Source: a virus
Lineage: Duplodnaviria; Heunggongvirae; Uroviricota; Caudoviricetes
Virus record (IMG/VR): IMGVR_UViG_2909246061_000003
Coordinates: 1 to 8,684 of that record
Length of the DNA stretch: 8,684 nucleotides
Reading direction: 5' to 3' (one strand)
Positions 1 through 8,684 of this stretch are shown one piece after another. Below the pieces are notes generated by a model. The model saw nothing but the letters and a program-made list of their open reading frames with translations. It was not told where the DNA came from and made no database searches. Position 1 is the stretch's first letter. Every line of letters starts with the position of its first letter. The translations under genes and the position numbers were made by a program.

Positions 1-192
1 TCAGGAGCATTTCTGATTAACACCACCGTTAAGAATCCACCCCTCAACAGCTTCACGAAGGTATGATTTGGGGTGGGTTCTGACTGGCTTCGGAAATCCG
101 TGCCGTTTGGTATAGTTCCAGATTGTCTGACGTGATGAAACACCGAGCTTGTTCATCACTTCTTTCTCAGGAATCAGGCTGGTATCGGTCAT
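1..192 (-). CDS. AlpA/Xis-family small winged-helix DNA-binding protein (putative prophage excisionase)
   Basis: Complete 63-aa ORF, ATG at 192-190 and stop at 3-1. The pattern KEV-x3-LGVS-x2-TIW-x5-GFPKPV followed by W-I is typical of HTH_17/AlpA-excisionase proteins. It lies at the distal end of the leftward early operon, where lambdoid xis genes sit. An int gene would lie left of the window. Confidence 0.7.
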   Translation of the reverse strand: MTDTSLIPEKEVMNKLGVSSRQTIWNYTKRHGFPKPVRTHPKSYLREAVEGWILNGGVNQKCS

Positions 193-204
193 CTTAATTC
201 TCCA

Positions 205-233
205 GGCAAAAAGAAACCGCCATCAGGCGGCTT
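205..233 (-). terminator. Rho-independent terminator downstream of the 55-aa ORF
   Basis: On the minus strand: AAGCCGCC-TGAT-GGCGGTTT hairpin (214-233, GC core of 5 bp) followed by CTTTTT (205-213). The stop codon of the 55-aa ORF lies in the loop. Confidence 0.6.
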
Positions 234-390
234 GGTGTTCTTTCAGTTCTTCAATTCGAATATTGGTTACGTCTGCATGCGCTATCTGCGCCCATATCAT
301 CCAGTGGTTATAGCAGTCGTTGATGCCCTCTGCTTCGATAACTCTGTTGAATGGTTCTCCATTCCATTCACCTGTGACTCGGAAGTGCAT
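223..390 (-). CDS. Small prophage protein, 55 aa, unknown function
   Basis: Not in the supplied ORF track because it is under 60 aa. ATG at 390-388, TGA at 225-223. Translation: MHFRVTGEWNGEPFNRVIEAEGINDCYNHWMIWAQIAHADVTNIRIEELKEHQAA. GGAG lies 7 nt upstream of the ATG, and a terminator follows immediately. Confidence 0.55.
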   Translation of the reverse strand: MHFRVTGEWNGEPFNRVIEAEGINDCYNHWMIWAQIAHADVTNIRIEELKEHQAA

Positions 391-402
391 TTATCATCTC
401 CA

Positions 403-459
403 TAAAACAAAACTCGCCGTAGCGAGTTCAGATAAAAGAAAACCCGCACTCGGCGGGTT
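403..459 (-). terminator. Tandem rho-independent terminators (minus strand)
   Basis: Hairpin B: AACCCGC / GCGGGTT (441-447 / 453-459), followed on the minus strand by TTCTTTTAT. Hairpin A: AACTCGC / GCGAGTT (411-417 / 422-428), followed by TTGTTTTA. Neither has a T-run on the plus strand, so both are minus-specific. Confidence 0.6.
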
Positions 460-479
460 CGCATTCGTTCAAATTGCGT

Positions 480-761
480 TTACTTCTTGGCGTTCTGTTC
501 ATCCATATCGATATACCATGGGTTGCTTCCCTTGGGCATGTTTAACGACTGCTCGCGATAGTATCTGATGCGCTCCATGAAATACTCGCGTGAGTGCTCA
601 GGTTGCTCTCATGATACCTGCTCAGTGATAACAGGTATGTTAAGGCGCTCTCTGTACTCCATGCCTGATGCTGCAAGGTCAACGTTTACCTTGTTCTGTT
701 TTTCTTTCGATTTCTCGGCGATGTTATGCCTGACATTGTCAACCCGCCTCCTTCTGAACAT
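480..761 (-). pseudogene. Small early-left ORF interrupted by one in-frame TGA (50 codons + stop + 42 codons)
   Basis: ATG at 761 to TGA at 611-609 gives MFRRRRVDNVRHNIAEKSKEKQNKVNVDLAASGMEYRERLNIPVITEQVS. The same frame continues to TAA at 482-480 as EQPEHSREYFMERIRYYREQSLNMPKGSNPWYIDMDEQNAKK. The distal part has only an internal ATG (578) with no Shine-Dalgarno. The 5' end overlaps the upstream 80-aa ORF by 23 nt. Confidence 0.4.
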
Positions 762-981
762 AACGGTTATAAATCAGTCCCTGAGGGCCATAAGGAAGCG
801 GGATGTGCAACTCCTCTGGTTCAGAAACTATCCATTCTCCGGCCATCTCCGCTGGAGAGGTAATGATAAGTTGTTTGCTAATAAAAGGACCACTCCTCTC
901 AACAACAAGCTTACCATCTTCATTAATAAAAGCTTGGATGTCAGGTGTGCTTCCACACTTGGTGATGCAGCGTTTGAACAT
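739..981 (-). CDS. Hypothetical prophage protein, 80 aa
   Basis: Track ORF 739..1023, trimmed to ATG 981 (MFKRCITKCGSTPDIQ...). That ATG is preceded by a GGGGGGA purine tract 7 nt upstream. The longer version would begin inside the putative promoter. I recognise no family. Confidence 0.5.
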   Translation of the reverse strand: MFKRCITKCGSTPDIQAFINEDGKLVVERSGPFISKQLIITSPAEMAGEWIVSEPEELHIPLPYGPQGLIYNRYVQKEAG

Positions 982-1011
982 TTTGTGTCCCCCCATTTTA
1001 TGTACGGGGTA

Positions 1012-1041
1012 ATTATAACACATTGAAATATAGTAATATTT
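1012..1041 (-). promoter_or_regulatory. Candidate extended -10 promoter with an upstream AT palindrome, driving the 80-aa ORF
   Basis: The minus strand reads TGTTATAAT (TGn + TATAAT; plus coordinates 1012-1020) about 30 nt upstream of ATG 981. The palindrome AAATAT-AGTA-ATATTT (1026-1041) occupies the -35/spacer region. I found no good -35 hexamer. Confidence 0.35.
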
Positions 1042-1107
1042 GACGTAGATTTCTTTTGATCTATAAGCGATTTTTTAATGCTTTTAAGTTATAAATACTT
1101 GTTTTCA

Positions 1108-1524
1108 TCACCCATCTTGCTGCGGTGCTACTATTGAAAAGTGCTCACACCCTTTAGCCCAAATAGTTTTGATAGTTGTCCAACTGACTGGAACCTTGAT
1201 TTCGATTCTCCCGCTACAGTCACAAGTTTCGCAATCATCATCACCAAAGCATTCCGGGCAGCTTATAAACGTAGTTTCTGAAAATTCACCGGATAGCACA
1301 CCCTTAGCGCCGTTCTCGGCTGTTAGTCTCTTCGGCACCATGACCCAACCATCCGGAATTACCGGAGAGTTGCCGGGTTCTTTAATGTGCAAGCGAGGCT
1401 CACCATCTTTTGGCTCAGGCCACTGGCGCTCCATGTTGATCTTCAATTTATCTTCCATAGCAGCGGTAATTTCAGCATCGCTGATGCCAGCACGGCGCTG
1501 TGCATCCCACAACAGGAAATGCAT
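1108..1524 (-). pseudogene. Ead/Ea22-like early protein, 5'-truncated fragment
   Basis: The 138-aa ORF begins mid-domain. From memory, ..CMHFLLWDAQRRAGISDAEITAAMEDKLKINMERQWPEP resembles the C-terminal half of the MazG-like DUF550 module of lambdoid Ea22-type proteins. A Cys-rich module follows (CPEC..CETCDC). The frame stays open upstream to 1554 with no further start. Lambda-like nutR sequence begins at about 1565, so the 5' part was deleted. Confidence 0.55.
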
Positions 1525-1566
1525 ACAGTACGGAACTAAACGCGGAAAAGCCGCTTAAGACATTCC

Positions 1567-1598
1567 CGCTCTTACACATCCCAGCCCTGAAAAAGGGC
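1567..1598 (+). promoter_or_regulatory. nutR site (boxA CGCTCTTA + boxB GCCCTGAAAAAGGGC)
   Basis: boxA is at 1567-1574. The boxB hairpin GCCCT-GAAAA-AGGGC is at 1584-1598. Both match lambda nutR as I recall it, and so does the flanking sequence up to the cII start. Confidence 0.8.
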
Positions 1599-1677
1599 AT
1601 CAAATTAAACCACACCTATGGTGTATGCATTTATTTGCATACATTCAATCAATTGTTATCTAAGGAAATACTTACAT
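1599..1677 (+). terminator. tR1-like Rho-dependent terminator region
   Basis: The segment ATCAAATTAAACCACACCTATGGTGTATGCATTTATTTGCATACATTCAATCAATTGTTATCTAAGG matches my recollection of the lambda nutR-cII interval, which carries tR1. A Rho-dependent terminator cannot be proven from sequence alone. Confidence 0.45.
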
Positions 1678-1700
1678 ATGCAACTTACAAGTACTCGCAA
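1668..1700 (-). promoter_or_regulatory. PRE-like CII-dependent promoter
   Basis: The minus strand reads TTGC-GAGTAC-TTGT (plus 1687-1700), then 13 nt, then AAGTAT (plus 1668-1673). The architecture and spacing match lambda PRE (TTGC-N6-TTGC, 13 nt, AAGTAT). The second repeat is TTGT rather than TTGC. Confidence 0.5.
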
Positions 1701-1956
1701 GAAAGCGAATGCAATTACAAGCAACATCCTGAATCGAATTGCTGTACGTGGTCAGCGAAAGGTTGCCGACGCGTTAGGGGTTAATGAATCGCAAATTTCG
1801 CGATGGAAAGACAGCTTCATCCCCAAAATGGGAATGCTTCTGGCTGTTCTTGAATGGGGTGTTGAAGACGAGGAGTTGGCGGAACTGGCTAAGCAAGTAG
1901 CCAGAATGCTGACAAAAGAAAAAGCCCCGAAGAACGGCGAATTCTTCGAGGCCTGA
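1678..1956 (+). CDS. cII: Lambda CII-family transcriptional activator
   Basis: 92 aa from ATG 1678, with AAGGA upstream in the same context as lambda cII. VADALGVNESQISRWKDSFIPKMGMLLAVLEWGV aligns with lambda CII AEAVGVDKSQISRWKRDWIPKFSMLLAVLEWGV. The track start at 1618 is an upstream extension into tR1 and is rejected. Confidence 0.9.
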   Translation: MQLTSTRKKANAITSNILNRIAVRGQRKVADALGVNESQISRWKDSFIPKMGMLLAVLEWGVEDEELAELAKQVARMLTKEKAPKNGEFFEA

Positions 1957-1990
1957 TGTAGAAAGACTGGATCAATCCACAGGAGTAATT

Positions 1991-2152
1991 ATGACAAAAC
2001 GTCGTAAGAAATACCAGGAAAAAGAAGAGATTCGACACCCTGATTCACCTGAGGGATTAGTGGTAGCCGCAGCAAATAACAGGGCGTTCGCAGAACGCCT
2101 TGTTGGTGTTTACAGACTAGCCAAAGCAGGAGTGAAACATGGGCGTCGTTAA
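1991..2152 (+). CDS. Hypothetical basic 53-aa protein between cII and O
   Basis: Not in the track. CAGGAGTAATT-ATG at 1991, TAA at 2150-2152. Translation: MTKRRKKYQEKEEIRHPDSPEGLVVAAANNRAFAERLVGVYRLAKAGVKHGRR. It overlaps the O-like start by 14 nt. Its SD and first codons resemble the lambda O initiation region. Confidence 0.45.
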   Translation: MTKRRKKYQEKEEIRHPDSPEGLVVAAANNRAFAERLVGVYRLAKAGVKHGRR

Positions 2153-2936
2153 GTTAGCTGATTACAGGCCTCAACTGGAGGTCGTGGAGCATCGCGTGGC
2201 AGATACCGAAGATGGTTTCATGCGCATTGCTAACGAGATTACCGACAGTCTGCTGATGGCTGATTTAACCGTCCGGCAGTTGAAGGTGATGCTCGCTATC
2301 ATGCGCAAGACATACGGATTCAATAAGCCGATGGATCGACTCACAAACACGCAGATAGCAGCCATGACAGGTATTCATCACACTCATGTTTGCGCTGCCA
2401 AGCGCCAGCTTATCGAGCGTAAATTCCTCATTGCTGATGGCGTGAAAATCGGAGTGAACAAGGTGGTTTCTCAGTGGATTAGCCAGGACAGCTTAACATT
2501 AGCTAAAACAGCTAATAAAACATTAGCCAAGTCGGCTAATGGGTATAAGCCAAGTCAGCTAAACACAAAAGACAATATACAAAAGACAATAAATACAAAT
2601 ACCCCCTTACCCCCTAACGGGGGCGGCGATGGGCAGGTTAAACCTGAACGTCGCAAGGCAGAACGAATCGACTACGAATCCTTCCTGAACGCCTACAACA
2701 CCGAAGTCGGTGACAGACTGCCACACGCTGTTGCGGTCAACGAGAAACGCAAACGCCGCCTGAAGAAAATCATCCCGCAACTGAAAACGCCAAACGTGGA
2801 CGGTTTCAGAGCGTATGTCAGGGCGTTTGTGCATCAGGCCAAGCCGTTTTACTTCGGAGACAACGACACGGGCTGGACGGCCGATTTTGATTACCTGCTG
2901 AGGGAAGACTCGTTAACGGGAGTTCGGGAAGCGTAG
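2139..2936 (+). CDS. Lambda O-family replication initiator, with non-lambda C-terminal domain
   Basis: 265 aa, with AGGAG upstream of ATG 2139. The N-terminal domain aligns along its length with lambda O (RQLKVMLAIMRKTYGFNKPMDRLTNTQI vs RQFKVLLAILRKTYGWNKPMDRITDSQL). Iterons are embedded in the gene. The C-terminal part (..FYFGDNDTGWTADFDYLLRED..) is unlike lambda O. The last codons and the stop lie in sequence that looks like the lambda Q 5' region, so the 3' end is probably junction-derived. Confidence 0.85.
   Translation: MGVVKLADYRPQLEVVEHRVADTEDGFMRIANEITDSLLMADLTVRQLKVMLAIMRKTYGFNKPMDRLTNTQIAAMTGIHHTHVCAAKRQLIERKFLIADGVKIGVNKVVSQWISQDSLTLAKTANKTLAKSANGYKPSQLNTKDNIQKTINTNTPLPPNGGGDGQVKPERRKAERIDYESFLNAYNTEVGDRLPHAVAVNEKRKRRLKKIIPQLKTPNVDGFRAYVRAFVHQAKPFYFGDNDTGWTADFDYLLREDSLTGVREA
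2479..2600 (+). repeat. ori-lambda-type origin: four palindromic iterons plus an AT-rich tract
   Basis: The iterons are TTAGCCAGGACAGCTTAA (2479-2496), TTAGCTAAAACAGCTAA (2499-2515), TTAGCCAAGTCGGCTAA (2523-2539) and TAAGCCAAGTCAGCTAA (2546-2562). They are spaced 20-24 bp apart. An A-rich tract (2563-2600) follows and contains a 13-bp direct repeat, ACAAAAGACAATA, at 2565-2577 and 2579-2591. The layout inside the O gene is the same as in lambda. Confidence 0.7.
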
Positions 2937-2962
2937 CTAAATTTCATTCGCCAAAAAGCCCG

Positions 2963-3541
2963 ATGATGAGCGACTCACCACGGGCTACGGCTTCTGACTC
3001 TCTTTCCGGTACTGATGTGATGGCTGCTATGGGGATGGCGCAATCACAAGCCGGATTCGGTATGGCTGCATTCTGTGGTAAGCACGAACTCAGCCAGAAC
3101 GACAAACAAAAGGCTATCAACTATCTGATGCAATTTGCACACAAGGTATCGGGGAAATACCGTGGTGTGGCAAAGATCGAAGGAAATACTAAGGCAAAGG
3201 TACTGCAAGTGCTCGCAACATTCGCTTATGCGGATTATTGCCGTAGTGCCGCGACGCCGGGGGCAAGATGCAGAGATTGCCACGGTACAGGCCGTGTGGT
3301 TGATATAGCAAAAACAGAGCAGTGGGGGAGAGTTGTTGAGAAAGAGTGCGGAAGATGCAAAGGTGTCGGCTATTCAAGGATGCCAGCAAGCGCCGCATAT
3401 CGCGCTGTAACGATGCTAATTCCAAACCTCACCCAACCCACCTGGTCACGCACTGTTAAGCCGCTGTATGACGCTCTGGTGGTGCAATGCCACAAAGAAG
3501 AGTCAATCGCAGACAACATTTTGAACGCGGTCACACGTTAG
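2963..3541 (+). CDS. Q: Late-gene antiterminator Q (lambda Q type), missing the first ~15 codons
   Basis: The 192-aa product is near-identical to my recollection of lambda Q residues 16-207 (MMSDSPRATASDSLSGTDVMAAMGMAQSQAGFGMAAFCGKHELSQNDKQ...CRDCHGTGR...CGRCKGVGY...NILNAVTR). The Q frame upstream reads ..SVAKFHSPKSP, as in lambda, but has no start codon back to the stop at 2888-2890. ATG 2963 has no SD. Confidence 0.85.
   Translation: MMSDSPRATASDSLSGTDVMAAMGMAQSQAGFGMAAFCGKHELSQNDKQKAINYLMQFAHKVSGKYRGVAKIEGNTKAKVLQVLATFAYADYCRSAATPGARCRDCHGTGRVVDIAKTEQWGRVVEKECGRCKGVGYSRMPASAAYRAVTMLIPNLTQPTWSRTVKPLYDALVVQCHKEESIADNILNAVTR
3186..3218 (-). promoter_or_regulatory. PaQ-like CII-dependent antisense promoter inside Q
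   Basis: The minus strand reads TTGC-GAGCAC-TTGC (plus 3205-3218), then 13 nt, then TAGTAT (plus 3186-3191). This is the CII tetrad-repeat architecture, located where lambda PaQ is known to sit. Confidence 0.55.
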
Positions 3542-3583
3542 CAGCATGATTGCCACGGATGGCAACATATTAACGGCATAATA

Positions 3584-3625
3584 TTGACTTTTTGAATAAA
3601 GTTGGGTAAATTTGACATCAACGAT
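3584..3625 (+). promoter_or_regulatory. Late promoter PR' with Q-binding/qut region and sigma-dependent pause element
   Basis: TTGACT (3584-3589), a 17-nt spacer TTTTGAATAAAGTTGGG, TAAATT (3607-3612), then the -10-like AACGAT at 3620-3625. This nearly matches lambda PR'/qut as I recall it. Confidence 0.8.
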
Positions 3626-3647
3626 GGATAAATGCACTCGTTAAATA

Positions 3648-3677
3648 AAGCCCTGAGTTAATAGCTCTGGGCTTTTT
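3648..3677 (+). terminator. Rho-independent terminator ~30-60 nt downstream of the PR' start (tR'-like, short leader RNA)
   Basis: AAAGCCCTGAG / CTCTGGGCTTT stem (one T:T mismatch) with loop TTAATAG, followed by the T5 run at 3673-3677. It would give a transcript of about 58 nt from about 3620. Confidence 0.65.
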
Positions 3678-3957
3678 GCGTTTTAAGCACGGCCTTTCTG
3701 AAAGCACATCAAACCAAATACCAGACAGACAATACCCTCACCTTATAGGGACACTTGCTTCAACAGGAGGGACGGTTAGGACCGCCATCCTATATGGGAC
3801 GACCGCCAATAGAACCACGGCCACGGTAATAGAACTCTTCAGAGATGGCACAGTCGCTGCCGGGCATACTTTTACGCTGAGAGATATTTCTTTTGGAGAC
3901 AGCAGGGCTCTAGGGGCTGATTTTGGAGGCTCCTTCGGGAATCTGTATAAGTTCTAA
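3649..3957 (+). pseudogene. Start-less open frame, possible 3' remnant of a late (tail fibre/spike?) gene
   Basis: The frame is open from 3649 to TAA 3955-3957. It contains no ATG at all, and the only start is a TTG inside the terminator. The peptide is Gly/Thr-rich (..GTLASTGGTVRTAILYGTTANRTTATVIELFRDGTVAAGHTFTLRD..). It converges on gtrC, as tail genes do in gtr-carrying phages. The functional assignment is a guess. Confidence 0.3.
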
Positions 3958-3958
3958 T

Positions 3959-3976
3959 CGGCCGCATCAGCGGCCG
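3959..3976. terminator. GC-rich hairpin between convergent units
   Basis: CGGCCGC-ATCA-GCGGCCG, a 7-bp stem. It lies 1 nt after the plus-frame stop and 7 nt beyond the gtrC stop. There is a weak T-rich run on the plus side (TATCTCTTT) and none on the minus side. Confidence 0.45.
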
Positions 3977-3983
3977 TATCTCT

Positions 3984-5585
3984 TTACAGATAAGCGACGA
4001 AATAGCCGTCAATTTTCTTTATTTTAAGTTTGTCGCCATAGATGGATAGGGGCTTCTTGAGCCATGTATCGTCTGTGGCGACATATATCTCATTATTCCT
4101 TAGCGTACCCTTAGCCTTAATTTCGGCTATATATCTTTTGTTATTATCTATCGCTGCTTTGTCTGCTCTAGCAAAATACCCAAAATTAAGTTTCATTTTT
4201 TCTGAAGAAGCAAATTCAGCAAATGGGAGCCAATGTCTTAAGCTGAACTCATCGTAATCAGTGGTTATGATAGTGTCCTTCCCTTTGGAGATGACTTCCC
4301 ACTCTTTACTCAACATTTGAGAGCTGTATGGCTTACCAGTATATATCTCTCGAACGGCTTTGAAAAAGTTGCTTTCATCCGCCACTGATATTAATAGAAT
4401 AGGGAGCAAGACATAAGCAGAACTTTTCGAGGTTTTTGCTAAGTATGCCAAAACAATCAACATCAAGATCATCGTCACCGGCCAGAAGAACCGACCAGAA
4501 GAGCGAAAAACGCCACCAACCTTCATGAGAAAGTCATTCATTGGAATTTCAATGAGATTAAATCCATAAAAGTTAATTCGATAAGTTATAGAAACGGCAG
4601 CCAGAACTAAACAGAAGTACAATACAGGAGATTTTATAATTCTCCTGAAATCTATGGACTTTCTTAAAGAGGAGTCTATCAGCATAAACAAAAATAGCGT
4701 GATGATGCCTAATCCTAGATAATTTATACCCTCAAAGTTAGCCTGTTGACTCCCATGACTCAAGATAAGATGTGAGTATCTCTGGTCTCCTGGGTTGAAC
4801 CAGCCGGCAAGATCCATGTTAAGGAATCCGAATCCAGGGTATGGGTCAGAGCCTTTAATAACAAAGTATCCGGTAGCATACATTGCGAGAAATATTAACA
4901 CAGAGTAACACGCGAAAAAGAATGCCGATCTTTTTAAAGATAAACGGTTTGTGTTCAGTTTGTTTAAAATGTCAAATGCAAAAATTAAATACACCATTAT
5001 CAGCAAATATGCATGAATGGTGACTGAGAGAACTAAAATAGCAGCCCATCTTTTAAAGCAAAAAGACCTATTGATATAAAGGTAAAATCCAAAAAGAATT
5101 AGCCACTGAGCGCCTAATGCAAAGTGACCACCGGCACGATTTAAGAATATTGGTGCAATGCAGAAGAAGCATGAACCTATTGCAGAGAATATCTCATCCT
5201 TTGTTAACTTACGAAGAACCAAATACGCAGAAAACGTCATAAGCACAAAGCAAAGATACATCCAAAGCCCGTGATATTGAAATCTGGCGGGGAGAAAGTC
5301 GCTAAAAGGCTTGAATATGAAGGCCATAATTGGGATTGAGTCGGTGTAAACGATAGACCCACCTACACCCATCCCATAGTTATAATTTAGGCCAAGGGGC
5401 CACTGCAACAACGGAGTATTTCGGAAGAAATTCCATCCTGACCAGCTTTGACCAGGATCACCTATCATAAGCCATCCAACTCTTTTGAAGTCCAGCACAT
5501 TCACACCAACATACATAGCAAACATTGATGTCGTGAATATAAACATAAATAAGGACGCTAAAATCCTTTTTTGTGCCTTAGTCAT
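3984..5585 (-). CDS. GtrC-type serotype-specific O-antigen glycosyltransferase (polytopic membrane protein)
   Basis: 533 aa, the third gene of a gtrA-gtrB-X operon, overlapping gtrB by 8 nt. It has many hydrophobic segments, loop motifs such as [14 protein letters not shown] and [10 protein letters not shown], and a hydrophilic C-terminal domain of about 130 aa. The DNA is strongly AT-rich. Acceptor and linkage specificity cannot be read from the sequence. Confidence 0.8.
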
Positions 5586-6501
5586 TGTGTTTATTCCTTA
5601 AGATGTAACGAGGCCTAGCCTTGACTTCAATATATATTCTTCCGATATATTCACCAAGAACGCCAATGCCGATAAGTTGAATCCCGCCCAAGAACAGGAT
5701 TGAAACAAGGAGTGAAGGATATCCTCTCACGGCATTTCCAAATGCAATAGTATCGATGATCATCCAGGCTCCGTAGATAAATGCAAGCCCAGCGACTAGT
5801 AATCCAATATAAGTCCACATACGTAGAGGGAATGTAGAAAAGCTAGTAATCCCTTCTAGAGCTAAATTCCAAAGCTTCCAGCCATTAAACTTTGTGCAAC
5901 CAGCGACTCGCTCAGCTCTGGCGTATTCTACTACATCTGTTTTCCCGCCAACCCAAGACAAAACGCCCTTCATGAACAAGTTTCTTTCTGGCATTAGTTT
6001 GATATTTTCTACCACTTCTCGTGACATTAAACGGAAGTCACCGACGTTCTCTTCAATTTTGGGATTGCTGATTTTATTGTGTAGCTTATAGAACCACTCA
6101 GCTGATTTTCGCTTTAAACGACCGTCAGTAGACCTGTCTGTACGTTTGGCCAGAACCATATCCGCCCCAGCCTGCCACTTCTCAATTAGGTGGGGGATTA
6201 CTTCAATTGGGTCCTGCAGATCTACATCAATCGGAATGACCGCGTCGCCTGTAGCTTGGTCAAGGCCAGCAAACAAAGCCGGTTCCTTTCCGAAGTTACG
6301 CGTGAAGGAGAGAGGAACTACGAGTGGGTCAGCAATGGCAAGCGCGTTAATAATTGATTCTGTAGCGTCTTTGCTACCGTCGTTAATGAAGACTATTTCG
6401 ACTTCATGCTGCTGAAGCCCTTCAAATTCCCGCACGGTTTTATAGAAGATTGGAATTGCTTCCTCTTCATTAAACACAGGAACGACCAGAGAAATTTTCA
6501 T
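5578..6501 (-). CDS. gtrB: Bactoprenol (undecaprenyl-phosphate) glucosyltransferase GtrB, GT2 family
   Basis: 307 aa. [17 protein letters not shown]...INDGSKD...PIDVDLQDP, plus two C-terminal TM segments, is the classic GtrB/GT2 signature. There is an ATGA overlap with gtrA (6498-6501). Confidence 0.95.
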
Positions 6502-6860
6502 TTCACATCCCTAAAGACAATGAACTTTGAATAAATAAACCCGCACACCAGACTGATGGCGGAGAACAGAATTAAGGTGATGATTGGTGCCAGACCAGAT
6601 TTATCCGCCGCCCAACCCACAGCTGCGCTAAGCGTCCCCATAAAGCCGACGTAAAGCATGTATCGCATGGTTGTTGTGGATGACTTAAACGTGAATCTGG
6701 CATTTGCGAAGAAGCTAAATGACACAGCCACAACGAACCCGGCAAAGTTGCCAAGGGCCTGTCCTGTATGGAATGCATAGATGCAAATTGCGAACACTAC
6801 CCAGTGAATGAGCGTGTTAATGACACCTATCGATGTGTACTTGGCGAATAACTTTAACAT
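6498..6860 (-). CDS. gtrA: GtrA flippase for bactoprenol-linked glucose
   Basis: 120 aa from ATG 6860. [23 protein letters not shown]...[12 protein letters not shown]...YSKFIVFRD matches phage GtrA proteins, which are about 120 aa. The track's GTG 6923 start adds 21 non-homologous residues and is rejected. Confidence 0.9.
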
Positions 6861-6936
6861 TATAGAAATCAGTGAATTCGGAAAGGTCTGAAGTGTAGCA
6901 CCACAAACGCTATTGATCGACACCGCCGATCAGTAC

Positions 6937-6950
6937 TACTGTATTAATAT
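6937..6950. promoter_or_regulatory. Left half of a LexA (SOS) box split by the IS
   Basis: TACTGT + ATTAATAT abuts the IS left end. Together with 8275-8280 it reconstructs TACTGTATTAATATACAGTA (CTGT-N8-ACAG). Confidence 0.7.
6943..6950. repeat. Target-site duplication, left copy (ATTAATAT)
   Basis: An identical 8-mer occurs at 8267-8274, directly flanking the IS inverted repeats. An 8-bp duplication is the ISL3-family hallmark. Confidence 0.85.
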
Positions 6951-8266
6951 GGGTCTTCCCTTGTTGTGGTGGCTGAAGGCATGATAATGGTGTATTTAAT
7001 CGCCAGAGGTCACCGCCATGGACGAAAAGTCCCTCTACGCTCATATTCTCAACCTGTCCGATCCGTGGCAGGTAAAGTCCCTTTCTCTCGATGAAAATGC
7101 CGGTTCTGTTACTGTCACTATTGAGATCGCTGAAAACACCCGGCTAGCCTGTCCGGCCTGCGGTAAATCCTGTTCTGTTCACGATCACCGTCATCGTAAA
7201 TGGCGCCATCTTGATACCTGCCAGTTCACCACTATTGTTGAAGCCGATGTTCCACGAATTATGTGTCCGGAGCATGGCTGTCAGACGTTGCCTGTTCCGT
7301 GGGCTGGCCCCGGAAGCCGGTATACGTTGCTGTTCGAATTGTTCGTTCTCTCATGGCTGAAAATCAGCACCGTTGATGCTGTCAGGAAGCAACTTAAGCT
7401 CAGCTGGAATGCGGTTGACGGCATTATGACCCGGGCAGTTAAGCGAGGTCTTGCCCGGATAAAAAAGCCATTATCCGCCCGTCATATGAATGTGGATGAG
7501 GTCGCCTTTAAAAAAGGACATCGTTACATAACGGTGATCTCCGATCGCGATGGTCGGGCGCTGGCCTTAACGGATGATCGCGGCACAGAGAGTCTTGCCG
7601 GCTATCTTCGCACACTCACTGATGGGCAGTTGCTGGCTATCAAAACGCTCTCAATGGACATGAACGCGGGCTATATAAGAGCAGCGCGCATCCACTTACC
7701 CAGCGCGGTTGAGAAAATCGCCTTTGACCGCTTCCATGTGGCGAAGCAACTGGGCGAGGTAGTTGATAAAACCCGTCAGAATGAACATCCGCACCTCCCT
7801 GTTGAAAGCCGACGCCAGGCAAAAGGAACCCGCTTCCTGTGGCAGTACAGTGATAAGTGGATGACTGAATCCCGGCAGGAAAAGCTGATGTGGCTGCGTG
7901 CACAGATGAAGCTGACGAGCCAGTGCTGGGCGCTGAAAGAGCTGGCAAAGGATATCTGGAACAGGCCATGGAGCGAGGAAAGGCGGAGTGACTGGCAGAG
8001 ATGGCTGGCGCTGGCGGCTAACAGTGACGTTCCCATGATGAAAAATGCTGCGAAAACGATAGGAAAAAGGCTGTACGGGATCCTGAATGCGATGCGACAC
8101 AGTGTCTCAAACGGAAATGCGGAGGCACTTAACAGCAAGATAAGGTTGCTGAGAATAAAAGCCAGGGGATACCGAAACCGGGAGCGCTTTAAACTGGGAG
8201 TGATGTTCCACTACGGTAAGCTGAATATGGAGTTCTGAGCCTTCCCACCATGATCGGGGAAGACCC
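6951..8266 (+). mobile_element. ISL3-family insertion sequence, 1316 bp, apparently intact
   Basis: Imperfect terminal inverted repeats of about 28-30 bp. IRL is GGGTCTTCCCTTGTTGTGGTGGCTGAAGGC (6951-6980). The reverse complement of IRR is GGGTCTTCCCCGATCATGGTGGGAAGGC (8266-8239). There is a single transposase ORF and an 8-bp direct-repeat flank. Confidence 0.9.
7018..8238 (+). CDS. ISL3-family DDE transposase
   Basis: 406 aa. It has an N-terminal zinc-finger region (CPACGK...CPEHGC), a DDE core (..MDMNAGY.., ..FDRFHV.., ..SNGNAEALNSKIRLLRIKARGYRN) and the length typical of ISL3 transposases. AGAGG lies upstream of the ATG. Confidence 0.95.
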   Translation: MDEKSLYAHILNLSDPWQVKSLSLDENAGSVTVTIEIAENTRLACPACGKSCSVHDHRHRKWRHLDTCQFTTIVEADVPRIMCPEHGCQTLPVPWAGPGSRYTLLFELFVLSWLKISTVDAVRKQLKLSWNAVDGIMTRAVKRGLARIKKPLSARHMNVDEVAFKKGHRYITVISDRDGRALALTDDRGTESLAGYLRTLTDGQLLAIKTLSMDMNAGYIRAARIHLPSAVEKIAFDRFHVAKQLGEVVDKTRQNEHPHLPVESRRQAKGTRFLWQYSDKWMTESRQEKLMWLRAQMKLTSQCWALKELAKDIWNRPWSEERRSDWQRWLALAANSDVPMMKNAAKTIGKRLYGILNAMRHSVSNGNAEALNSKIRLLRIKARGYRNRERFKLGVMFHYGKLNMEF

Positions 8267-8274
8267 ATTAATAT
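8267..8274. repeat. Target-site duplication, right copy (ATTAATAT)
   Basis: See the left copy at 6943-6950. Confidence 0.85.
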
Positions 8275-8280
8275 ACAGTA
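8267..8280. promoter_or_regulatory. Right half of the split LexA (SOS) box
   Basis: ATTAATAT + ACAGTA, ending 17 nt upstream of the umuD-like ATG. Confidence 0.7.
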
Positions 8281-8297
8281 ACTATCGGAGGTGAGTT

Positions 8298-8684
8298 ATG
8301 GGATTCCCGAGTCCGGCTCAAGACTATGTTGAAGAGCGCGTATTGCTCGACAAGCGCATCATAAGCAGACCAGCGGCCACGTATTTCATGAGAGCGGGTG
8401 CAACGCATCACCGCGAAGGCATCCTGAATGGTGCTCTTCTGGTAGTGGATGCATCGCTATCACCATGTGACGGCTCGTTGCTGGTTTGCAGAATGGAAGG
8501 TGAGCTGAGGATTAAGCGATATCGCAAATCACCAAAGCCTCACCTGGAGGATTTGCAGACGGGAAGGCGTGAGGAGATACCGGCACACGATGACGGCACG
8601 AGTCCGGATGCGATATTTGGTGTGATCACCTACATCATAAACGATGCACGCTCTGGCGAGTTTGATGATTGTCTGATTATGTGA
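8298..8684 (+). CDS. umuD: UmuD'-like S24-family protein (Pol V accessory subunit homologue lacking the N-terminal arm)
   Basis: 128 aa, with SD GGAGG at 8287-8291 and an in-frame TGA at 8292-8294 that excludes a longer N-terminus. M-GFPSPAQDYVEERV.. aligns with E. coli UmuD from Gly25 (GFPSPAADYVEQRI..). The alignment continues through ATYF, LLVVD, ELRIKRY (Lys97 equivalent kept) and FGVI. The GDSM motif is replaced by ATHH. Confidence 0.85.
   Translation: MGFPSPAQDYVEERVLLDKRIISRPAATYFMRAGATHHREGILNGALLVVDASLSPCDGSLLVCRMEGELRIKRYRKSPKPHLEDLQTGRREEIPAHDDGTSPDAIFGVITYIINDARSGEFDDCLIM

Follow-up and report, generated by a model that had tools for sequence, protein, structure and literature searches.

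ISKox3 splits the LexA operator of a prophage humD gene, and its ISL3 lineage shows a preference for SOS boxes

In a stretch of 8,684 nucleotides (nt) of Caudoviricetes DNA (positions 1 to 8,684 of the IMG/VR virus record IMGVR_UViG_2909246061_000003; referred to here as the window), the LexA operator in front of humD, a gene for a phage homologue of UmuD', is split by a copy of ISKox3, an insertion sequence (IS) of the ISL3 family. The insertion is recent, and we consider it very probable that its position was dictated by the target choice of the element itself. Preference for SOS boxes is a property of one lineage of ISL3 elements, as seen from the flanks of ISKox3 copies and of its relatives in other genomes.

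An ISKox3 insertion in the humD operator

The element and the two halves of the operator are arranged in the window as follows.

6937..6942: TACTGT, left half-site of the interrupted LexA operator, which forms one unbroken box with the right half-site in empty-site alleles
6943..6950: left copy of the 8-bp target-site duplication, ATTAATAT, which is the operator spacer; one copy only in empty-site genomes
6951..8266, plus strand: ISKox3 (ISL3 family), 1316 bp, boundaries set by the empty site
6951..6972, plus strand: left terminal inverted repeat, GGGTCTTCCCTTGTTGTGGTGG, 17/22 match to the right repeat, first 10 positions identical
7018..8238, plus strand: ISL3 transposase gene, 406 amino acids, recognized by its Pfam domains
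8245..8266, minus strand: right terminal inverted repeat, paired with the left repeat
8267..8274: second copy of ATTAATAT, the duplicated 8-bp target site, on the right of the IS
8275..8280: ACAGTA, right half-site of the interrupted operator
8287..8291, plus strand: GGAGG, ribosome-binding site of humD, read from the sequence, with 6 nt between it and the ATG
8298..8684, plus strand: humD, phage homologue of UmuD', 128 amino acids, S24 family, NCBIfam NF051876

An earlier note on this DNA had described an ISL3 element with an 8-bp duplication, and both points were borne out. The transposase carries the domains DDE_Tnp_ISL3 (PF01610, E = 5.9e-56), HTH_Tnp_ISL3 and Zn_ribbon_ISL3 (PF13542 and PF14690 among the matches), the terminal inverted repeats start with GGGTCTTCCC and agree at 17/22 positions, and ATTAATAT stands on both sides of the element and as a single copy at the empty site. 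Annotated ISKox3 copies on Klebsiella, Salmonella and E. coli plasmids match the element at 100% identity over its 1316 bp, so that domains, repeats, duplication and near-identity to a named element all place it in the ISL3 family. The range 6937-8297 given in the note does contain the insertion, but the IS itself ends at 8266 and the range also takes in the half-sites and the humD leader. Within the left end of the element, 6966-6974 can pair with the transposase ribosome-binding region (7008-7016) in read-in transcripts (z = -1.9), which is a possible guard against activation by read-in transcription. IS10 and IS50 have a known guard of this kind.

When the IS and one copy of the duplication were removed, the rebuilt site read TACTGTATTAATATACAGTA, which matches the ideal box TACTG(TA)5CAGTA at 18/20 positions and ends 17 nt 5' of the humD ATG at 8298. 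The rebuilt 861-bp junction was found at 100% identity in three E. coli chromosomes, and window positions 3744-6950 plus 8267-8684 are 100% identical to E. coli TUM12357, which is without the IS. Because these empty-site alleles are identical to the rebuilt junction, the insertion is real, precise and recent. Among complete E. coli genomes, no IS-bearing humD allele was found, only empty sites and other insertions. A contiguous CTGT-N8-(A/G)CAG is kept at this place, 17 nt before humD, in the empty-site alleles of E. coli, an Enterobacter phage and Salmonella phage BTP1. The phage P1 record has an equivalent box, annotated as a LexA binding site, 19 nt before the humD ATG as against 17 nt in the window, in front of a HumD with the same UmuD'-like N-terminus. 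With CTGT-N8-ACAG, an AT-rich spacer and a conserved position at the promoter, the rebuilt site has the sequence features expected of a gammaproteobacterial SOS box. The 18/20 box with both half-sites and its 17-nt distance from the ATG, both proposed in the earlier note, held in the rebuilt sequence and the three empty-site chromosomes. All the relatives listed above have the contiguous form, so that the refuting case named in the note, empty-site alleles in relatives that lack it, did not arise.

Comparison of the occupied with the empty site directly shows how the element entered: staggered cuts were made at both borders between half-site and spacer, and repair duplicated the 8-bp spacer and left one half-site on each side. 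It might be argued that CTGT and ACAG belong to ISKox3 itself, which would then have longer inverted repeats and no duplication; the flanks do lengthen the inverted repeat to 36 nt at 75% complementarity. We give this idea next to no credence, since the empty sites carry TACTGT-N8-ACAGTA once and without an IS, which refutes it, the 8-mer varies among copies and is duplicated, and the boxes concerned are the published LexA boxes of dinD and umuD.

Target choice of ISKox3 and its relatives

The starting clue was that a search with the left junction unexpectedly hit other ISKox3 copies together with some 30 nt of their flanks. We gathered the flanks of every stretch with an ISKox3 left end from species-representative genomes, metagenomes and viral contigs, all of them natural copies, and after removal of redundancy 89 left flanks and 55 right flanks were available. 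CTGT stood at -12 to -9, exactly 8 nt from the element, in 72/89 left flanks (CTG in 81/89) and at any other offset in at most 2 flanks, which served as our offset control (binomial P ~1e-159). Correspondingly, 43/55 right flanks had ACAG at +9 to +12. The consensus target is TACTGT-ATATATAT-ACAGTA, and the 8-bp duplication is its spacer. A CTGx-N8-ACAx box is rebuilt from every distinct copy that has a perfect duplication (32/32), with a mean match of 17.1/20 to the ideal LexA box, so that the 18/20 of the window is typical, and most of the rebuilt sites lie outside long open reading frames (ORFs). Position 15 is A in 32/32 target sites as against 10/16 published E. coli boxes (p = 0.0007). 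ISKox3 is hence a site-specific IS, with a defined target sequence used in a fixed register far above chance. The earlier note had presented the hit on the operator centre as a remarkable single event; for ISKox3 and its relatives, as the 72/89 left flanks make plain, it is the rule.

Which genes are controlled from these sites was read from the neighbours, taken as genes starting 0-200 nt outward from the insertion point and named by NCBIfam equivalog models. UmuD/HumD homologues were found at 18 flanks and DinI-like proteins at 6, and RecA, SulA, UvrA, SSB, Cho, YdjM, DinB and DinD each occurred as single or double cases. In Candidatus Symbiopectobacterium, an insect symbiont with more than 20 copies, the element sits at the operators of recA, uvrA, ssb, cho, ydjM and sulA. 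On IncX3 blaNDM-5 plasmids the arrangement is AGCTGT-ATGCATAT-IS-ATGCATAT-ACAGTA, 5' of a small ORF and an S24/umuD gene. E. coli MY203L1 has ISKox3 in the humD operator of a related prophage, with the duplication ATGCATAT and in the opposite orientation, and two further loci (L115 and L119) are independent humD-operator insertions, bringing the independent hits on this operator to at least three.

At a metagenomic copy, L073, the half boxes are the same as those published for dinD and umuD of E. coli (PMC3009722, Table 4); here one and the same IS has a dinD half box on one side and a umuD half box on the other. This copy is one of many: about half of the full copies (L073, L046-L062, L103, L121 and most of the Symbiopectobacterium loci L004-L036) have non-matching 8-mers and yet a LexA half box on each side, which suggests either that copies at different SOS operators have recombined or that the assemblies are chimeric. 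Near-identical ISKox3 was also seen in an Arthrobacter assembly (L018) and in a metagenome-assembled genome of Chloroflexota (L022), and a Vagococcus entry (P0021) has an 88% identical ISL3 transposase. These assemblies belong to unrelated phyla; the left flank in the Arthrobacter assembly is that of enterobacterial IncX3 plasmids, and all three are most likely contaminating contigs.

The same target was found with ISCfr12 (90.6% protein identity) and with ISEc53 (89.9%), which lies upstream of a dinI-like-umuD operon, as well as with a 73% relative in Yersinia (4/4 chromosomal copies, one of them 38 nt before dinI), ISSoEn4 of Sodalis pierantonius beside uvrD (71%), a 65% relative in Providencia and two lineages at 44-46% identity that have other terminal repeats. 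One locus, L160 (P0106), whose element ends were undefinable, is outside this comparison. A lineage at 49% identity from GC-rich hosts (P0090) has 8-bp duplications without CTGT/ACAG and was used as the negative control for the flank method; this contrast shows that the method does not create the pattern. That P0090 might hunt for another LexA motif was considered and rejected, its flanks being without a consistent motif. The preference for SOS boxes thus extends, within one ISL3 lineage, down to about 45% transposase identity.

ISEc53 (565-2449 in both L131 and L132, on IncF/IncHI1B plasmids) is 1885 bp long and carries an ORF of the ClbS/DfsB family as a passenger, placed between the transposase gene and the left end of the element. 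Proteins of this type protect against DNA damage, and here one is carried by an element that targets SOS boxes.

Two readings would take the position of the insertions out of the hands of the transposase. According to one, an ISL3 element with a general taste for AT-rich 8-mers happened to land at the centre of an SOS box. ISL3 elements do generally duplicate AT-rich 8-mers, and P0090 does so without CTGT/ACAG, but the flank statistics, with most left flanks independently in the exact register, and the repeated, independent strikes on the humD operator refute chance, to which we assign a vanishingly small probability. According to the other, insertion is near-random and copies persist only where the SOS operator is dispensable. 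Natural copies are indeed filtered by selection, and laboratory selections yield intragenic insertions. Selection, however, cannot fix a base-exact register in which the duplication always equals the spacer, nor can it account for the avoidance of other neutral intergenic DNA, and symbionts with IS expansion, Symbiopectobacterium and Sodalis, show the pattern too; we regard survivorship as a very improbable explanation.

On the reading that we favour, the transposase of the ISKox3 lineage selects the 20-bp palindrome TACTGT-N8-ACAGTA with an AT-rich N8, and because this sequence is the LexA box of Gammaproteobacteria, the element lands in SOS operators on chromosomes, plasmids and prophages alike. 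How the site is recognized is a separate question, in which we lean towards a symmetric transposase complex that reads the DNA directly. An alternative is guidance by LexA: the transposase would be recruited by operator-bound LexA, or by the DNA shape that LexA induces, and would insert between the bound half-sites. It is in favour of this that target and LexA operator agree at all 12 conserved positions and in having an AT-rich spacer, that the sites struck by ISKox3 are real SOS operators, and that the preferred boxes are those closest to the consensus, where LexA binds most tightly. On the other hand, the transposase has no significant similarity to LexA in BLASTP and no known interaction with it, insertions are reported in capsule genes, where LexA binding is unexpected, and a directly read symmetric target consensus has a precedent, for example in the hot spots of IS30. 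We hold LexA guidance to be unlikely, though well short of negligible, and consider it equally doubtful that the lineage is an SOS-box hunter tied to LexA more broadly, either recruited by bound LexA or using operators freed by LexA cleavage. If that were true, insertion would be linked to the DNA-damage response, with a single SOS-regulon gene (recA, sulA, umuDC, dinB, prophage and plasmid SOS genes) rewired at every jump. The LexA motif was one and the same in every host seen.

Several observations weigh against strict, direct targeting of SOS boxes as the explanation. In K. pneumoniae under selection, ISKox3 was recovered inside the capsule genes wza, wzc, wzy and wzi, with the repeats ATTTGTAA, ATACATAT and TTATAATT (PMC12057282; PMC11836320). 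These insertions suggest that ISKox3 can use non-operator sites, and its specificity is perhaps not absolute. About 10-20% of the flanks have no half-site, most of them from a rearranged Symbiopectobacterium genome. The natural copies have all passed through selection, and survivorship may inflate the share of intergenic operators among them. Finally, the bias towards consensus-like boxes, with A at position 15, fits direct reading and tight LexA binding equally well.

Consequences for humD and the prophage

The product of humD scores 207 bits against the HumD model NF051876 (cut-off 120) and is full length, its residues 1-128 covering profile positions 1-129; identity is 69.8% with P1 HumD and 82.8% with N15 gp26. 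In the alignment the protein lacks the N-terminal arm of UmuD and begins at the Gly directly after the UmuD cleavage site, and an in-frame TGA (8292-8294) lies directly upstream of the ATG. Because of this start and the upstream stop, the window HumD would be a ready-made UmuD'. That HumD can substitute for UmuD' in SOS mutagenesis is stated in the annotation of P1 HumD only. At the position of UmuD Ser60 the window protein has Thr, whereas UmuD, LexA and P1 HumD have a Ser nucleophile; the Lys of the catalytic dyad is kept.

The humD promoter would lie to the left of the IS, where a block, TTGATCGA(C/T)ACC(G/T)CCGATC, is conserved in all empty-site alleles and holds all candidate hexamers.

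6913..6922, plus strand: candidate humD -35 region, TTGATC (6913-6918) or TCGACA (6917-6922), placed by means of the conserved block

The candidate -10 hexamers are TACTGT and TATTAA. On this assignment the whole promoter has probably been displaced by 1.3 kb. One more result speaks against our reading at this point: a strict sigma-70 consensus scan of the junctions and of the empty site returned no convincing promoter, the humD hexamers being below threshold. As no strong sigma-70 consensus was found, the promoter assignment and the transcriptional consequence are inferred only.

With its half-sites 1.3 kb apart, the operator should no longer be bound by a LexA dimer, and no LexA box was found inside the IS or recreated at either junction. 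Loss of LexA repression is likely for these reasons, and it is reasonable to infer that humD has been uncoupled from LexA. The old promoter would now fire into the IS. The earlier note had remarked that transposase and humD share their orientation and that no terminator separates them, and a consensus scan agreed, predicting no intrinsic terminator in 6800-8450, a range that includes the IS and the interval from the transposase stop to humD. It follows that read-through expression of humD is possible. Transcription would reach the gene only by read-through across the IS, from the old promoter and the transposase promoter, and we would expect weak expression that no longer depends on SOS induction. 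Nothing suggests selection for such read-through, as among the copies next to umuD or humD the IS faces the gene in 9 cases and away from it in 9.

HumD corresponds to the UmuD' subunit only, and active Pol V still needs UmuC and activated RecA, both of which are under SOS control. The phenotypic effect in undamaged cells is probably small. By presenting the insertion as the uncoupling of a mutagenesis gene, the earlier note overstated its phenotypic weight, since HumD alone gives no active Pol V.

The other genes of the window mark it as part of a lambdoid or P22-like prophage, in which humD is a moron, that is, an accessory gene.

1618-1956: cII
2139-2936: replication O gene
2963-3541: antiterminator Q
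3984-5585, minus strand: DUF6311 protein of a gtr-type O-antigen modification operon
5578-6501, minus strand: family-2 glycosyltransferase of the gtr-type operon
6498..6860, minus strand: gtrA, divergent neighbour of humD, Pfam GtrA_DPMS_TM, with the annotated start taken from L001

Q is followed almost at once by the gtr operon (2963-3984), with no lysis or structural genes in between, and the identity of the window to the empty-site strain starts only at 3744; the prophage is either a mosaic or a defective one. An ORF at 1108-1524 (minus strand), which lies upstream of cII and runs opposite to it, encodes a dATP/dGTP pyrophosphohydrolase domain.

The upstream region of gtrA is common to humD and now adjoins the left end of the IS. 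Within this intergenic region, a block conserved across alleles (6913-6931) contains GATC twice (6915-6918 and 6928-6931). In P22-like phages, Dam and OxyR make gtr operons phase-variable. About 90 nt separate the IS from the annotated gtrA start (6860), and regulation of gtr may be disturbed as well.

Known systems and meaning of the target preference

The arrangement ISKox3-umuD-IS26 on IncX3 blaNDM plasmids involves the same element (98-100% identical) and the same kind of operator insertion. Papers on the ISKox3-umuD context, which is widely reported (PMC7566911), give gene order only, and the target in the window is a different one, the humD gene of a chromosomal prophage, left intact. 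The window also differs from P1, in that its humD lies beside the gtr operon at the end of a P22-like prophage and has an operator split by an IS. Within the literature searched on ISKox3, ISL3, ISEc53 and ISCfr12, we found nothing linking these elements to LexA or to an SOS box, ISfinder and subscription journals being outside the search; LexA is named in none of 87 papers in which ISKox3 occurs.

Defined, recurrent and often palindromic targets, entered in a fixed register, are known from other mobile elements. IS30 uses 24-bp palindromic hot spots and Tn5053/Tn402, the 'res hunters', their own defined sites; IS1397 and ISKpn1 enter the palindromes of repetitive extragenic palindromic (REP) sequences and bacterial interspersed mosaic elements (BIMEs), and IS5075 and IS4321 the ends of Tn21-type transposons. 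ISKox3 differs from these site-specific elements in that it targets the operators under a global stress regulator, and because these are the SOS operators, every insertion rewires an SOS gene. For the ISL3 family, we know of no prior record of such site targeting. An ISL3 element in the vanA promoter, mentioned in a preprint, likewise parts a gene from its promoter and operator, but cases of this type are sporadic and picked out by selection, whereas the position of ISKox3 follows its own target preference. Element, gene and box were each known; what appears to be new is a site-specific IS that has the operator set of a global stress regulator as its target.

In practical terms, the lineage is a source of a natural DDE transposase whose target is 20 bp long, and SOS operators can be found from IS flanks alone. 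In IS-expanded insect symbionts, copies are shown at the operators of SOS genes. ISKox3 is carried by the globally spread IncX3 blaNDM plasmids, on which its target preference accounts for the constant ISKox3-umuD context. If LexA operators are the preferred sites, each acquisition of such a plasmid brings in an element able to derepress or silence SOS genes, among them error-prone polymerases, recA, sulA and SOS-controlled prophage and plasmid switches. If true, the spread of these plasmids would in this way lead directly to changes in mutagenesis, persistence and prophage induction.

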